Shown piece by piece: positions 13,176-62,472 of a stretch of 64,000 nt of DNA. This stretch comes from Escherichia coli (GTDB lineage Bacteria; Pseudomonadota; Gammaproteobacteria; Enterobacterales; Enterobacteriaceae), in NCBI RefSeq assembly GCF_029227855.1, contig NZ_CP074356.1; one strand, given 5' to 3'. Made by a program: the position numbers and the translations under genes. The first letter of the stretch is position 1; each line of letters starts with the position of its first letter. A model generated the notes under the pieces. The model was not told the origin of the DNA, did not search any database, and worked only from the letters and a program-made list of their open reading frames with translations.

Positions 13176-13320
13176 AACGGGAAAGCCCCTCCCGAGGAAG
13201 GGGCCATAAATAAATAAGGAAAGGGTCATGATGAAGCTACTCATCATCGTGGTGCTCTTAGTCATTAGCTGGCCAGCTTACTAAGACTACCAGGGCGGGG
13301 GAAACCCCGCTCTACCCTCA
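13176..13320 (-). ncRNA. Sib-type antisense sRNA, copy 1 (antitoxin of ibs)
   Basis: Minus-strand promoter TTGACA (13355..13350), 17-bp spacer, TACTTT (13332..13327); transcript fully overlaps ibs copy 1; GC-rich hairpin (13186..13205) followed by a U-rich stretch on the minus strand. Ends are approximate. Confidence 0.5.
13228..13284 (+). CDS. Type I toxin Ibs, 18 aa hydrophobic peptide (MMKLLIIVVLLVISWPAY)
   Basis: ATGATG start followed by a hydrophobic 18-codon ORF, typical of Ibs toxins, preceded by AAGGAAAGGG. Confidence 0.75.
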   Translation: MMKLLIIVVLLVISWPAY

Positions 13321-13506
13321 CTCCTGAAAGTATGCCTTCACGATAAGATTGTCAATCTGCAGGCTTTGCAGTCTGCGATCCTGCCAGCAAATATTCTTTG
13401 CGAGACGTTACGCAATAATCACACTGGAAACTATTTTATCCGCAAGTCAGCGATAGACTGCATACAGGGCGAAAGGAGGTAAGCCGACGATTTCAGCGGG
13501 ACGCTG

Positions 13507-13648
13507 AAACGGGAAAGCCCCTCCCGAGGAAGGGGCCTTAAATAAGGAAAGGGTCATGATGAAGATACTCATCATCGTGGTGCTCTTAGTGATTAGCTAC
13601 CCAGCATACTAAGACTACCAGGGCGGGGGAAACCCCGCTCTACCCTCA
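13507..13648 (-). ncRNA. Sib-type antisense sRNA, copy 2
   Basis: Same architecture as copy 1: minus-strand TTGACA (13683..13678), 17-bp spacer, TAATTT (13660..13655); hairpin plus U-rich 3' end near 13507. Ends are approximate. Confidence 0.5.
13556..13612 (+). CDS. Type I toxin Ibs, 18 aa (MMKILIIVVLLVISYPAY)
   Basis: Paralogue of copy 1 at the same position in repeat unit 2. Confidence 0.75.
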   Translation: MMKILIIVVLLVISYPAY

Positions 13649-13835
13649 CTCCTGAAATTATGCCTTCACGATAAGATTGTCAATCTGCAGGCTTTGCAGT
13701 CTGCGATCCTGCCAGCAAATATTCTTTGCGAGTCGTTACGCAATAATCACAGAGGAAACTATTTTGTTCACGCGTTAGCGATAGACTGCATTCAGGGCGA
13801 AAGGAGGTAAGCCGACGATTTCAGCGGGACGCTGA

Positions 13836-13983
13836 AACGGGAAACCCTCTCCCGGAGAAGAGGGCTTTTAATAAGGAAAGGGTTATGATGAAGCACGTCA
13901 TCATACTGGTGATACTCTTAGTGATTAGCTTCCAGGCTTACTAAGAACACCAGGGGGAGGTGGAAACCTCTCCCTAACCCTCA
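13836..13983 (-). ncRNA. Sib-type antisense sRNA, copy 3
   Basis: Minus-strand TTGACA (14018..14013), 17-bp spacer, TAATTT (13995..13990); diverged hairpin CCCTCTCCCGGAGAAGAGGG. Ends are approximate. Confidence 0.45.
13885..13944 (+). CDS. ibsA: Type I toxin Ibs, 19 aa (MMKHVIILVILLVISFQAY), IbsA-like
   Basis: The 19-aa peptide matches the remembered IbsA sequence; it is the most diverged of the three copies. Confidence 0.7.
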   Translation: MMKHVIILVILLVISFQAY

Positions 13984-14164
13984 CTCCTGAAATTATGTCA
14001 CTCCGCCCTTAGTGTCAATCGACGGCTCTCCGTTCTTGCGAGGCGAATAGCAAAATTTTCTGCGCCGCCGGGCCTAATTCTGAAAGTTTCTTCGTTTGCT
14101 CTTATTTCATTATTGCAGTCGGTATGATACCGGACCTCAATAATTCTCTAAGAAAGGATTTCTT

Positions 14165-27029: not shown

Positions 27030-28613
27030 TCACACCTCGTACTCCATCTCGCCATCCTTATGCAGCGGAATAATCTGCACCTTCTGCACGCGATGGCTTT
27101 CCACCTGCAACGTTTTGAGCAAGTAATCCCCTACCTGAACTTCTTCGCCAGGTTTTGGAATACGCTGCAAATATTCCATCAGCAGCCCGGCAATGGTGTG
27201 ATATTCGCGTTTCTCATCCAGCGGTAGCGGCACATATTGCACCAGATCTTCCAGCGGCATATGACCATTCGCCGTCCAGGAACCGTCCGCATTTTTCTGA
27301 ATATCATGGCGGGCGTCGATCTCTTCCACTTCGTTCGGTAAGTTACCGGCAATGGTTTCTGTGACGTCACTTAATGTCACAATCCCTTCCACTGAACCAA
27401 ACTCATCCACCACAAAAGCAAAGTGCGTGCGGGCATTACGGAACTGCTCCAGGGCTGGTAACAACGGCAAGGTTTCCGGGAACACCAGCGGCTGGCGAAT
27501 CAACACCCGCAGGTTGAGCGGTTCGCCGCGCAGTGACTGTTGTAGCAGGTCGATAACGTGAACAACACCGAGCAAATCTTCTGCGTCATCACCGTCGGTA
27601 ACCACCAGCCGCGTATGCTGATTTCGCTCCAGCAACTGGCGGATCTCGTCTTCCGGCGCGTTGAGATCGATATGCTCAATATCGTGGCGCGACGTCATAA
27701 TGCTGCTGACGGTACGCTGATTAAGATTAAGGACCCGCTCAATCATCCGCCGTTCCTGCGGGTTAAAGATCTGCTGGTTACCATGATCCACCAGCATGGA
27801 CGCGGTTTCGGCGTCCAGTTCCGCATCTTCTTTTTGCCCGCTAAGCAGGCGCATTACCGCTTCGGTAGTCCGCTGGCGCAGCGTCTGGTTAGCGGAAAGA
27901 AAACGTCGCCGGTTAAAGATAGCCAACTGATTGAGCGCCTCGATCATCACCGAGAAACCAATGGCAGCGTACAGGTAGCCTTTCGGAATGACGAAGCCGA
28001 AACCTTCCGCCACCAGGCTAAAGCCAATCATCAACAGGAAACTTAAGCAGAGTATGACGATGGTCGGGTGGCTATTAACAAACTGAGTTAACGGCTTGCT
28101 GGCCATCAACATCAGGCTGATAGCGATAACGACGGCGGCCATCATGACCAGTAAATGGTCGACCATTCCGACGGCGGTAATCACCGAGTCGAGTGAGAAG
28201 ATGGCGTCCAGCACCACAATTTGCGTCACCACCCCCCAGAACTTCGCACCTTTGCGTTGCGTGGGGTTATTGCTGTCTTTCCCTTCCAGCCGTTCGTTCA
28301 ACTCCATCGTGGCTTTGAACAACAGGAAGAAACCACCAAACAGCATGATTAAGTCGCGGGCGCTAAAGGTAAACGAGCGGAAGCTGAACAGTGGTTGCGT
28401 CAGGGTGACCAGCCAGGAGATTGACGCCAGCAGTAACAGGCGCATTAACATTGCCAGCAGCAGCCCGGTAACTCGTGCGCGGTCACGCTGCTTCGGCGGT
28501 AGTTTTTCGGCGAGGATGGCAATAAAGACCAGGTTATCAATGCCGAGGACCAGTTCGATCACAATCAGCGTGATTAACCCGGCCCAGATAGACGGATCGG
28601 CAATCCATTCCAT
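27030..28613 (-). CDS. yegH: TerC-family membrane protein with CBS/CorC domains YegH
   Basis: 527 aa from ATG at 28613 ([30 protein letters not shown], TerC motif); C-terminal CBS pair and CorC domain. Confidence 0.9.
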
Positions 28614-29044
28614 AGTAAGTACAAAACCTATTCGTTGTATGACAAATGTCACAATTCGATCATGGATAAATCAGGGCAAAAATGCAATGTTACGGCACTA
28701 TTTATCTCACATTATTTGAGGATTATAACATCGCATTATCCCTGAATTAAAAGTGGTAATAATAAAATATTATTTAAGAAATATCGCATATAGATACGCC
28801 GTATTAAATATTGTCAACATAAAGAAACTCCTAAAAAATACCACACATGACACTTAATATAATTCTTAAAAATAGCCAATTGCCGATTTGTTACCTTGCC
28901 TGCAATTCCGTTAGCTGTAACACTTCCTCCTGCATTATTGTAGAGCTAATATTCAATTACCATAATGCCACCTTATATCTGGAAAATTAATATCCGGAAT
29001 AACGCTTTTTCATAAACGACTGCGTTAGAAAATCTAAGCTAAAT

Positions 29045-29083
29045 CAGTGTATTGGTAGCTAAAAAGCCAGGGGCGGTAGCGTG
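29045..29083 (+). promoter_or_regulatory. JUMPstart element with ops (GGCGGTAGCGTG, RfaH recruitment) in the colanic acid operon leader
   Basis: CAGTGTATTGGTAGCTAAAAAGCCAGGGGCGGTAGCGTG matches the 39-bp JUMPstart consensus; ops core at 29072..29083, about 180 bp upstream of wza. Confidence 0.7.
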
Positions 29084-29261
29084 TCTGGATGCCTGAAAGA
29101 CCAGTCTGAATTATTCTTTCAATAGCCTGCGGATGAAATCAATTTTTTTAGGACTGATGCCAGTTAAATTTTTATTCAATTAACTGCAAGGTAAATGTGC
29201 ATGGCGACATTGCTATTAATAGTGCACAGGATAATTACTCTGCCAAAGTGATAAATAAACA

Positions 29262-30401
29262 ATGATGAAATCCAAAATGAAATTGATGCCATTATTGGTG
29301 TCAGTAACCTTGATAAGCGGTTGCACAGTACTTCCGGGCAGCAATATGTCTACGATGGGTAAAGACGTCATCAAACAGCAGGACGCTGATTTCGATCTCG
29401 ACAAAATGGTGAATGTTTATCCGTTGACCCCGCGCCTGATTGATCAATTACGCCCACGCCCCAACGTAGCGCGCCCCAATATGACGCTGGAAAGCGAGAT
29501 CGCGAATTACCAGTATCGCGTCGGGCCGGGGGACGTTCTTAATGTCACCGTCTGGGATCACCCGGAGCTCACCACGCCAGCCGGTCAGTACCGCAGCTCC
29601 AGCGACACCGGCAACTGGGTACAGCCTGACGGCACCATGTTCTACCCGTATATCGGCAAGGTTCACGTCGTGGGGAAAACGCTCGCTGAAATCCGCAGTG
29701 ATATTACCGGGCGCTTAGCGACGTACATCGCTGATCCGCAGGTGGACGTTAATATCGCCGCCTTCCGCTCACAAAAGGCCTATATCTCCGGTCAGGTGAA
29801 TAAATCCGGTCAACAGGCGATCACCAACGTGCCACTGACCATTCTCGATGCCATCAACGCCGCAGGTGGCCTGACCGACACCGCTGACTGGCGCAACGTG
29901 GTGCTAACACACAATGGTCGTGAAGAACGCATTTCTTTGCAGGCGCTGATGCAAAACGGCGACCTCAATCAGAACCGACTGCTTTATCCTGGCGATATTC
30001 TCTACGTGCCGCGTAATGATGATCTGAAAGTGTTTGTGATGGGTGAAGTGAAAAAACAGAGCACCCTGAAAATGGACTTTAGCGGCATGACCCTGACTGA
30101 AGCCCTGGGCAATGCTGAAGGCATCGACATGACCACCTCCAACGCCAGCGGCATCTTTGTCATTCGTCCGCTGAAAGGCGAGGGCGGGCGTAACGGCAAG
30201 ATTGCCAATATCTATCAGCTGGATATGTCCGATGCCACGTCGCTGGTGATGGCGACAGAATTCCGCCTGCAACCTTATGACGTGGTGTATGTCACCACCG
30301 CACCGGTTTCCCGCTGGAACCGTCTGATCAATCAGTTGCTGCCAACTATTAGCGGTGTCCGTTACATGACGGATACAGCCAGCGACATTCATAACTGGTA
30401 A
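29262..30401 (+). CDS. wza: Colanic acid outer membrane export lipoprotein Wza
   Basis: 379 aa; lipoprotein signal [21 protein letters not shown]. Confidence 0.95.
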
Positions 30402-43458: not shown

Positions 43459-43558
43459 CCGTTGAATAATCAACCGGATTAATTCTCCGGTAAATAACGA
43501 AAAAACAAAATTGGCCGCTTCGGTCAGGGCCAACTATTGCCTGAAAAAGGGTAACGAT

Positions 43559-52900: not shown

Positions 52901-53157
52901 TGAAAATCTAACCGAATGTAACGGTTGATAAGAAAATTGTAACGGCAGTGAGGATTCGTGGCGAAAGTAATTGTTGCGAATATTCCTGCCGTTGTTTTAT
53001 ATAAACAATCAGAATAACAACGAGTTAGCAATAGGATTTTAGTCAAAGTTTTCCAGGATTTTCCTTGTTTCCAGAGCGGATTGGTAAGACAATTAGCGTT
53101 TGAATTTTTCGGGTTTAGCGCGAGTGGGTAACGCTCGTCACATCGTAGACATGCATG

Positions 53158-53196
53158 CAGTACTCTGGTAGCTGTAAAGCCAGGGGCGGTAGCGTG
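53158..53196 (+). promoter_or_regulatory. JUMPstart element with ops (GGCGGTAGCGTG) upstream of the O-antigen cluster
   Basis: CAGTACTCTGGTAGCTGTAAAGCCAGGGGCGGTAGCGTG, 39 bp; ops core at 53185..53196, about 100 bp upstream of the first O-antigen gene. Confidence 0.75.
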
Positions 53197-61764: not shown

Positions 61765-62472
61765 CAGAAAACCCCCAGCTAGGCTGGGGGTTCCGGAAAG
61801 CTTTCAGCTTTGAGCCAGTTATTAAAACCCCTTTTGATTTGTTAAAACACTTTGCGGTCTGGCAACTGCAAGTGTCAAACAAGAAATCAAAAGGGGGTCC
61901 CAATGGGGAACGAAAAGAGCTTAGCGCACACCCGATGGAACTGTAAATATCACATAGTTTTTGCGCCAAAATACCGAAGACAGGTGTTCTACAGAGAGAA
62001 GCGTAGAGCAATAGGCAGTATTTTGAGAAAGCTGTGTGAGTGGAAAAGCGTACGGATTCTGGAAGCTGAATGCTGTGCAGATCATATCCATATGCTTGTG
62101 GAGATCCCGCCCAAAATGAGCGTATCCGGCTTTATGGGATATCTGAAAGGGAAAAGCAGTCTGATGCTTTACGAGCAGTTTGGTGATTTGAAATTCAAAT
62201 ACAGGAACAGGGAGTTCTGGTGCAGAGGGTACTACGTCGATACGGTGGGTAAGAACACGGCGAAGATACAGGATTACATAAAGCACCAGCTTGAAGAGGA
62301 TAAAATGGGAGAGCAGTTATCGATTCCCTATCCGGGCAGCCCGTTTACGGGCCGTAAGTAACGAAGTTGGATGCAAATGTCAGATCGTGTGCGCCTGTTA
62401 GGGCGCGGCTGGTAAGAGAGCCTTATAGGCGCATTTGAAAAACCTCCGGCTATGCCGGAGGATATTTATTTT
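61765..62472 (+). mobile_element. IS200-family insertion sequence (IS200/IS605 family); boundaries approximate
   Basis: About 0.7 kb element between gnd and ugd carrying a tnpA ORF; left-end hairpin CCCCCAGCTAGGCTGGGGG and right-end hairpin CCTCCGGCTATGCCGGAGG. gnd and ugd are directly adjacent in K-12. Confidence 0.7.
61903..62361 (+). CDS. tnpA: IS200 transposase TnpA (HUH Y1 transposase)
   Basis: 152 aa from ATG at 61903; MGNEKSLAHTRWNCKYHIVFAPKYRRQVFY...HIHMLVEIPPK (HuH motif) is characteristic of IS200 TnpA. Confidence 0.85.
   Translation: MGNEKSLAHTRWNCKYHIVFAPKYRRQVFYREKRRAIGSILRKLCEWKSVRILEAECCADHIHMLVEIPPKMSVSGFMGYLKGKSSLMLYEQFGDLKFKYRNREFWCRGYYVDTVGKNTAKIQDYIKHQLEEDKMGEQLSIPYPGSPFTGRK

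Follow-up and report, generated by a model that had tools for sequence, protein, structure and literature searches.

Why is wza, the first gene of the colanic-acid operon, preceded by a long stretch of AT-rich DNA, and which parts of that DNA are under constraint? We addressed this question in a 64,000 nt segment of an Escherichia coli genome (GCF_029227855.1, contig NZ_CP074356.1), here called the window. Gene boundaries were taken from the list of open reading frames (ORFs) and from the RefSeq annotation (yegH/wza-wzb-wzc-wca...) of NZ_AP045174.1, an E. coli chromosome that is 100% identical. The stretch is exactly 648 bp long (28614-29261) and separates wza (29262-30401, plus strand) from the divergent yegH (27030-28613, minus strand), which encodes a TerC-family membrane protein. 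No other intergenic gap in the first 50 kb of the window is as long, the runners-up being 317 and 292 bp. Its G+C content is 0.336 overall and 0.27-0.40 when calculated per 200 bp, compared with approximately 0.50-0.60 in the flanking genes.

The 648 bp gap is well known as the region that controls the colanic-acid capsule operon; it is shared with yegH and is an ordinary feature. The Rcs-dependent promoter, the RcsAB box, antitermination by RfaH at JUMPstart/ops and silencing by H-NS have all been published. What we add is a block-level map, a conserved promoter geometry, and a segment of fixed length between ops and the wza ATG that includes conserved blocks that are unstructured and non-coding. 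Taken as a whole, the gap very probably serves as a bidirectional control region between yegH and the wza-wcaM operon, working by mechanisms that have already been described. A first-pass annotation, made from the sequence alone, had presented all of the approximately 650 bp as a wza leader. The long AT-rich stretch is real and its coordinates are exact, but only approximately 331 nt (28931-29261, counted from the predicted promoter) can be called the leader, and the yegH-proximal 75 bp or so belongs to yegH.

Conserved and free sequence in the spacer

The Wza protein was used to search one genome per species, which gave 80 loci in more than 20 genera, all of the colanic-acid type and with Wza identities of at least 87%. 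Genera in the sample include Escherichia, Citrobacter, Salmonella, Enterobacter, Lelliottia, Kosakonia, Phytobacter, Franconibacter, Siccibacter, Atlantibacter, Trabulsiella, Cedecea and Buttiauxella. yegH and wza were divergent neighbours in 76/80 loci, separated by spacers of 475-935 bp (mostly 650-760 bp) with G+C contents of 0.35-0.41. As the divergent arrangement, the length and the low G+C content are shared by these 76 loci, the long AT-rich spacer is not peculiar to this strain. We aligned 77 spacers and, for 58 non-redundant species, calculated identity to the window. The neutral benchmark was a set of 133 four-fold degenerate sites in wza from the same genomes, which had a mean identity of 0.53 and a maximum of 0.62 over 28 consecutive sites.

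Against this benchmark the spacer resolved into discrete blocks with identities of 0.72-0.99, parted by stretches at 0.25-0.37. The blocks number at least 10, make up approximately 60% of the spacer, and extend from -150 to +331 relative to the predicted wza start, with further blocks on the yegH side. The other 40% or so, at 28690-28770, 28789-28810, 28838-28852, 28874-28888, 28940-29040 and 29192-29213, evolves at or above the rate of the four-fold sites and accepts indels and a repeat-element insertion. The first of these stretches (28690-28770) is indel-rich, and its identity of 0.37 is under the benchmark. Such tolerance is what would be expected if the spacer were functionless AT-rich filler apart from JUMPstart and the 100 bp or so nearest to the promoter. 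However, the blocks that make up the rest of the spacer lie well over both the benchmark mean and its 28-site maximum, and we regard the filler explanation as scarcely credible. The first-pass annotation had named a result that would count against its own expectation, namely that only the promoter-proximal 100 bp or so would matter, and conservation from about -150 to +331 contradicts this.

The promoters of wza and yegH

The predicted wza (cps) core promoter is at 28896-28924 on the plus strand and consists of TTGCCT (28896-28901), a 17 bp spacing that includes the extended -10 dinucleotide TG (28916-28917), and AACACT (28919-28924), which is AACAAT in most genera. When candidate sites were ranked with a sigma70 weight matrix that included an extended -10 bonus, TTGCCT-17-TGn-AACACT was the best site between the upstream boxes described below and JUMPstart in all 41 of the species tested. 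It is positionally conserved in 58/59 species and is the only plus-strand site outside JUMPstart of which this is true. The surrounding block (28889-28935) is free of indels and has identities of 0.75 to the window and 0.81 to the family majority. Past the predicted start at approximately 28931, conservation is lost within a few bases and free sequence follows until JUMPstart, which is what is expected of a promoter and an unconstrained early transcript. We infer that wza transcription starts near 28931, which would give a leader of approximately 331 nt (28931-29261, plus strand). In K-12 the predicted start corresponds to coordinate ~2,137,587, at a distance of 341 nt from the wza ATG. The cps start was reportedly mapped by Stout in 1996, and Wehland and Bernhard are said to have described the RcsAB box of the cps (wza) promoter region in 2000.

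Two other candidate promoters were rejected. TTGTCA-17-AAAAAT (28811-28839) was the sole call made in the spacer by a strict promoter scan, which found no more sites than in shuffled sequence; its -35 is invariant, but its -10 and the spacing sequence are not conserved. A -10-like TAATAT at 28947-28952 sits in the indel-rich part of the leader, and its distance to the conserved block differs among genera.

Upstream of the promoter are three RcsAB-like boxes, here called D, E and F, the centres of which are given relative to the predicted wza start. Box D (TAAGAAATATCGCA, 28775-28788, centre -149.5) matches the consensus at 9/14 positions, including 6/6 of those that are strongly conserved, and has an identity of 0.72 compared with 0.29 in its flank. 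Box E (TAAAGAAACTCCTA, 28820-28833, centre -104.5) matches at 10/14 positions, its TCCTA half is invariant and its identity is 0.81. Box F (TAATATAATTCTTA, 28855-28868, centre -69.5) matches at 10/14 positions on either strand and has identities of 0.85 to the window and 0.93 to the family majority. The boxes share one orientation, lying on the plus strand with their TC..A half toward the promoter, and are spaced 45 and 35 bp apart.

The first-pass annotation had expected the region to contain the Rcs-dependent promoter and had suggested a search for the RcsAB consensus. The expectation held, as the spacer contains one promoter that is conserved in position and three RcsAB-like boxes that are conserved across the family, but the search by itself was not informative. 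No match to the consensus (TaAGaatatTCctA) with three or fewer mismatches was found within the spacer. Looser matches of at least 9/14 were as frequent as in shuffled spacer (9 observed, 8.8 expected), so a motif search cannot settle which sequence is the operator. Boxes D-F, which match at 9-10/14 positions and 5-6/6 strong positions, are set apart by their conservation alone (0.72-0.85). The literature describes a single Rcs-dependent wza promoter with an RcsAB box, and RcsAB dependence is asserted there for wza. One or more of boxes D, E and F is probably the published box. RcsAB boxes presumably lie approximately 100 bp upstream of the start, and the wza box may be the one that contains TCCTA, which is box E.

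An additional block between boxes D and E (TTGTCAAC, 28811-28818) contains a nearly invariant TGTCAA (28812-28817, identity 0.99), and no element upstream of the promoter is more conserved than TGTCAA(T/C). TGTCAAT recurs approximately 300 bp downstream in most genera, within the first of the conserved blocks that follow ops, where the window has TTTCAAT. The minus strand of TGTCAAT reads as a perfect TTGACA. No function or factor for TGTCAAT was found. A PGAP frame for a 49 amino acid "hypothetical protein" (WP_162829205.1), annotated in many E. coli, corresponds to 28814-28963 on the minus strand (1415-1564 in locus L002). We consider this ORF spurious, as it is interrupted by a stop at codon 6 in the window and overlaps the conserved RcsAB-like boxes and the promoter.

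On the yegH side, a candidate promoter is present on the minus strand at 28659-28687, with TTGCAT as -35 (reverse complement of 28682-28687), a 17 bp spacing and CATGAT as -10 (reverse complement of 28659-28664). No other sigma70-like site on the minus strand is conserved in position; this one is found in 42/59 species, and the regions of its hexamers, GATCATGGATAA (28657-28669) and AAATGCAATG (28680-28689), both have identities of 0.87. The strict promoter scan misses it. TTGCAT-17-CATGAT is probably the yegH promoter, with a predicted start at approximately 28652 and a 5' untranslated region (UTR) of approximately 39 nt. A published in vitro CRP footprint (tgTATGAcaaatgTCACAatt; PMC12871828) was located at 28636-28656, and a published PhoB motif from chromatin immunoprecipitation (ChIP) (TGTCACAATTCGATCATG; PMC10294691) at 28647-28664. 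The two sites overlap each other and the -10 and start of the candidate yegH promoter, approximately 35-50 bp from the yegH ATG. Across the 58 species the region that contains them (28636-28664) has an identity of 0.77, and the palindrome TGACAAnTGTCA within it is kept across genera. For PhoB, no expression change was reported for either wza or yegH (PMC10294691).

The leader from JUMPstart to the wza start codon

The early part of the leader (28940-29040) is variable, with an identity of 0.30 across species and large indels. It is followed by a JUMPstart element (29045-29083, plus strand), which the first-pass annotation had also recognised and which matches Rfam RF01707 with 57.3 bits against a gathering score of 35. 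Identity across the element is 0.84-0.88. The ops sequence (GGCGGTAGCGTG, 29072-29083) was located by pattern match to the 12-mer definition GGCGGTAGnnTG and is on the coding, non-template strand. Two copies of the 12-mer are present in the window, where 0.1 are expected. This copy starts at +142 from the predicted start, in the untranslated leader, downstream of the only conserved promoter and upstream of a polysaccharide operon. It lies 190 nt before the wza ATG, and the distance is 186-199 nt in about 70/76 loci. In Citrobacter amalonaticus S646 (locus L047), where two inverted copies of a repeat of approximately 118 bp are found at approximately 25-140 (by yegH) and 745-865 of the spacer, one copy has inserted into a variable leader segment that corresponds to 29192-29213 (identity 0.46), placing ops 308 nt from the ATG. 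In another Citrobacter sp. (L007), ops itself carries a G-to-A substitution.

Occupancy of this region has been recorded in E. coli CFT073. An RfaH ChIP signal was present at the wza ops, 190 nt before wza, in a delta-hns delta-stpA strain and was gone in delta-rfaH (PMC9765446, Data set S2). The same study reported that H-NS covers the wza promoter region and represses initiation, with H-NS/StpA occupancy and de-repression both documented (PMC9765446). The spacer is also AT-rich enough for H-NS-silenced DNA, with a G+C content of 0.336 against approximately 0.53 in the flanks. According to published work, RfaH brings ribosomes to the nascent mRNA, suppresses pausing and keeps out NusG and Rho.

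The segment between ops and the wza ATG contains four conserved blocks, all considered here on the plus strand. Post-ops block 1 (ATTATTCTgTCAATAGCCTGCGGATGAA, 29110-29137) has an identity of 0.78 across 55 species compared with the 0.53 benchmark, block 2 (TTTTTTTAGGACTGATGCCAGTTAAATTT, 29143-29171) 0.86, and block 3 (29180-29191) 0.77. The fourth, which ends in GCACAGGATAATTACTCTGCCAAAGTGATAAATAAACA (29214-29261), is the translation-initiation block, with identities of 0.84 over its 48 nt and 0.93 over the last 28 nt; it includes no Shine-Dalgarno (SD) sequence. These blocks are conserved about as strongly as JUMPstart across more than 20 genera, and the literature searched contained no description of them. 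Among the 35 annotated genes of the window, wza has the weakest pairing with the anti-SD sequence (-1.6 kcal/mol), and its -30 to +30 region is the least structured (-2.4 kcal/mol) and the most A/U-rich (G+C content 0.28).

One clade, that of Pseudescherichia vulneris (L037, L038 and L041; spacer approximately 476 bp), has lost JUMPstart/ops together with post-ops block 1 and the blocks next to yegH. Boxes D-F are retained in this clade, as are the promoter block, block 2 (as TTTTTAGGACTGATGCCAGTTA) and the start-region block, and it represents a natural wza leader that is free of ops.

The first-pass annotation had suggested that the leader may hold regulatory RNA structure in addition to JUMPstart, and the long leader, the fixed ops-to-ATG distance of approximately 190 nt and the purifying selection on the blocks are all compatible with a riboswitch, thermosensor or attenuator, which could explain the low-temperature preference of colanic-acid synthesis. 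The suggestion was not borne out. The minimum free energy (MFE) of the leader was no better than that of dinucleotide shuffles (z = +0.20 for the 251 nt of 29040-29290 and +0.27 for the 333 nt of 28958-29290). RNAalifold, applied to 55 non-redundant species, gave -12.2 kcal/mol with a covariation term of -0.68 kcal/mol; it recovered essentially the JUMPstart hairpin alone, and the three compensatory pairs were all in or spanning JUMPstart. When the MFE structure of the window was imposed on the alignment, 69.8% of cells were paired compared with 68.4% for shuffles, and 19 compensatory pairs were seen where 20.4 were expected. No Rfam family besides JUMPstart was found in 28000-30000 at E≤10. 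A possible local AU-rich hairpin, CAGUUAA/UUAACUG (29161-29186, plus strand; 29161-29167 with 29180-29186), is present in the MFE fold, is paired in 74.7% of alignment cells and has compensatory changes in five pairs, yet many of its pairs are broken. A different hairpin of 9 bp occurs at the same place in P. vulneris. Terminator-like sites were absent from the leaders of the window, L029 and L023 (Lelliottia and Salmonella), and an intrinsic attenuator at the conserved run of 7-8 U residues (29143-29149) was rejected because there is no G+C-rich stem upstream of it and no stem in three genera. We consider a structured regulatory RNA beyond JUMPstart very improbable. Upstream ORFs fared no better. 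No ORF of at least 8 codons starting with ATG was common to more than 19/59 species, and those at 29133, 29157 and 29195/29201, together with one on the minus strand, are not conserved. The 8-codon ORF at 29157 has ATA or ATT in place of its start codon in several genera, while the surrounding nucleotides stay conserved. As the tests for structure, terminators and upstream ORFs were all negative, the constraint on the ops-to-ATG segment is on primary sequence.

What, then, might that primary sequence do? Our tentative suggestion, in which we place limited confidence, is that the post-ops blocks (29110-29137, 29143-29171, 29180-29191 and 29214-29261) are a cis-acting module that loads ribosomes on the SD-less wza start or shields the untranslated transcript from Rho. 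Alternatively, the blocks could act as DNA, either as a downstream element for H-NS/StpA nucleation and bridging to the AT-rich DNA upstream, or as an operator for some transcription factor. This is compatible with the published coverage of the wza promoter region by H-NS and the repression of initiation in CFT073, with the survival of blocks in a clade that lacks ops, with the occurrence of GATAAAT near either end of the spacer, each time within a conserved block (28665-28671 and 29250-29256), and with the presence of TGTCAAT both in the 28811-28818 block and, in most genera, in post-ops block 1. GATAAAT resembles the core of the motif reported for high-affinity binding of H-NS (tCGATAAATT), and a filament of H-NS that bridges over the promoter would fit such an arrangement. 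However, degenerate recognition by H-NS would not normally keep 48 nt near-invariant in more than 20 genera, the most conserved block adjoins the start codon and runs into the first codons as a determinant of translation initiation would, and no factor for TGTCAAT was found. On balance we judge action at the DNA level unlikely. The blocks might instead be a platform on the mRNA for a trans-acting regulator, either a small RNA (sRNA) that depends on Hfq or a protein, for example CsrA, which would control the translation of wza or the access of Rho. Sites for base pairing or protein binding are typically conserved in sequence but not in structure, as is seen here, four GGA motifs are at conserved positions (29087, 29132, 29151 and 29229), and colanic-acid genes were up to 50-fold higher in a csrA mutant of enteropathogenic E. 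coli (PMC6333774). Against this, an electrophoretic mobility shift assay with CsrA-His6 and the wza 5' UTR was negative, and its authors concluded that the effect is indirect (PMC6333774). A regulator of this kind therefore seems rather improbable. We know of no sRNA partner of the wza leader.

Combining these data with the published work, the region probably operates as follows. The 75 bp or so nearest to yegH would serve that gene, with a short 5' UTR and a weak conserved promoter overlapped by the CRP and PhoB sites, and would be followed by approximately 80 bp of unconstrained AT-rich spacer. Next would come an upstream activating region of approximately 95 bp (28775-28868) with three RcsAB-like boxes in the same orientation, through one or more of which RcsA-RcsB would activate transcription. 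The weak sigma70 extended -10 promoter would need this activation and would otherwise be silenced by H-NS on AT-rich DNA, silencing that RcsAB would overcome. After approximately 110 nt of freely evolving leader, JUMPstart/ops would pause RNA polymerase and load RfaH, which would keep the polymerase elongating against Rho and H-NS over 190 untranslated nt and a 20-gene operon. Finally, the A/U-rich, unstructured and SD-less start region may permit SD-independent, RfaH-assisted loading of ribosomes on wza.

Several points weigh against this account. The wza transcription start used throughout is a prediction and not a measurement, the strict promoter scan does not call TTGCCT-17-TGn-AACACT, and matching to the consensus cannot tell whether box D, E or F is the operator. 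As block 2 and the start-region block are kept in the P. vulneris clade, which is free of ops, they cannot be strictly dependent on RfaH loading. Further, single-nucleotide invariance over 48 nt exceeds what a need for an unstructured A/U-rich region predicts, and there may be a sequence-specific partner.

Known systems, the strain allele and wider meaning

The closest known system is the cps (wza) region of E. coli K-12, which has the same locus, flanking genes, JUMPstart and Wza protein (WP_000978094.1) and a spacer that aligns end to end. The two spacers are 91% identical, compared with 97.7% in the flanking coding sequences, and all of the conserved blocks are intact in the window. Identity to K-12 is 100% over 28614-28669, approximately 90% over 28670-28940, 73% over 28941-29040 and 99.5% over 29041-29261. 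The differences are concentrated in 28670-29040 and include an 11 bp deletion near 29024, in the variable early leader. The allele is rare. Over 28400-29500, only 3/4833 complete E. coli genomes with a match were at least 99% identical, while 106 were 95-99% and 4723 were 90-95% identical. Import from E. whittamii was considered and rejected, as the spacer is only 93% identical, and no clear donor was found.

The leaders of other RfaH/ops operons (rfaQ/waa, hlyCABD, kps and O-antigen wzx) share with wza the ops 12-mer on the non-template strand, an untranslated leader, H-NS binding and an RfaH ChIP signal. They differ in the distance from ops to the start codon, which in CFT073 is 40-71 nt for wzx, kps and rfa and approximately 634 nt for hly, compared with 190 nt for wza. 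A first gene without an SD sequence, as in wza, was reportedly described as typical of RfaH operons by Burmann and colleagues in 2012. In Erwinia amylovora amsG and Pantoea stewartii cps, which are outside the 80-locus sample, an RcsAB box is several hundred bp before the first start codon and JUMPstart is in the leader. The logic is that of wza, namely a far-upstream RcsAB operator and a long JUMPstart leader ahead of an exopolysaccharide operon. The rcsA promoter has two RcsAB boxes and is silenced by H-NS (PMC11879457), and wza resembles it in having several RcsAB-like sites ahead of a promoter that H-NS silences, although in wza there are three candidates, predicted from sequence, in a single orientation and 45 and 35 bp apart. 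As two boxes have been reported for rcsA, several occupied RcsAB sites at wza would not be unusual.

The window has a second JUMPstart/ops (53158-53196; RF01707, 60 bits), placed after the colanic-acid cluster/galF-like ORF and ahead of the O-antigen genes. The possibility that the two JUMPstart elements share a leader was rejected, as the sequence after the second ops is unrelated to the wza leader, and for the same reason the post-ops blocks are specific to wza. Approximately 180 bp upstream of the second JUMPstart, TGCGAATATTCCTG (52975-52988) is one of the five matches to the RcsAB consensus with three or fewer mismatches in the window.

Other RNA features were seen elsewhere in the window. 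Within the colanic-acid operon, the 100 bp that separate cpsB from cpsG include an algC RNA motif (43505-43554; RF02929, 77 bits). SIB antitoxin RNAs are present as three tandem copies (13213-14018; RF00113, 140-149 bits) opposite three ORFs annotated as Ibs toxins; they lie between mdtA and yegL, a locus at which K-12 presumably has two copies (sibA and sibB). A match to the Hfq-binding sRNA STnc490 (RF01405, 144.6 bits) is found at 61770-61893, near the end of the window.

Should the post-ops blocks prove to be a module of the kind tentatively suggested above, SD-independent initiation in an operon of the RfaH type would have a sequence-specific partner. A specific role of the blocks in ribosome loading or protection from Rho would make the proposed coupling of RfaH and ribosomes testable on a leader that is both natural and simple. 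Colanic acid is the capsule that E. coli and its relatives make under stress, fusions to cps/wza are the standard read-out of Rcs envelope stress, and the wza region is among the most used reporters in enterobacterial genetics. The division of the spacer into constrained and free parts, a leader that occupies approximately half of it, and a start region that is SD-poor and unstructured matter mainly to those who build or interpret such fusions.

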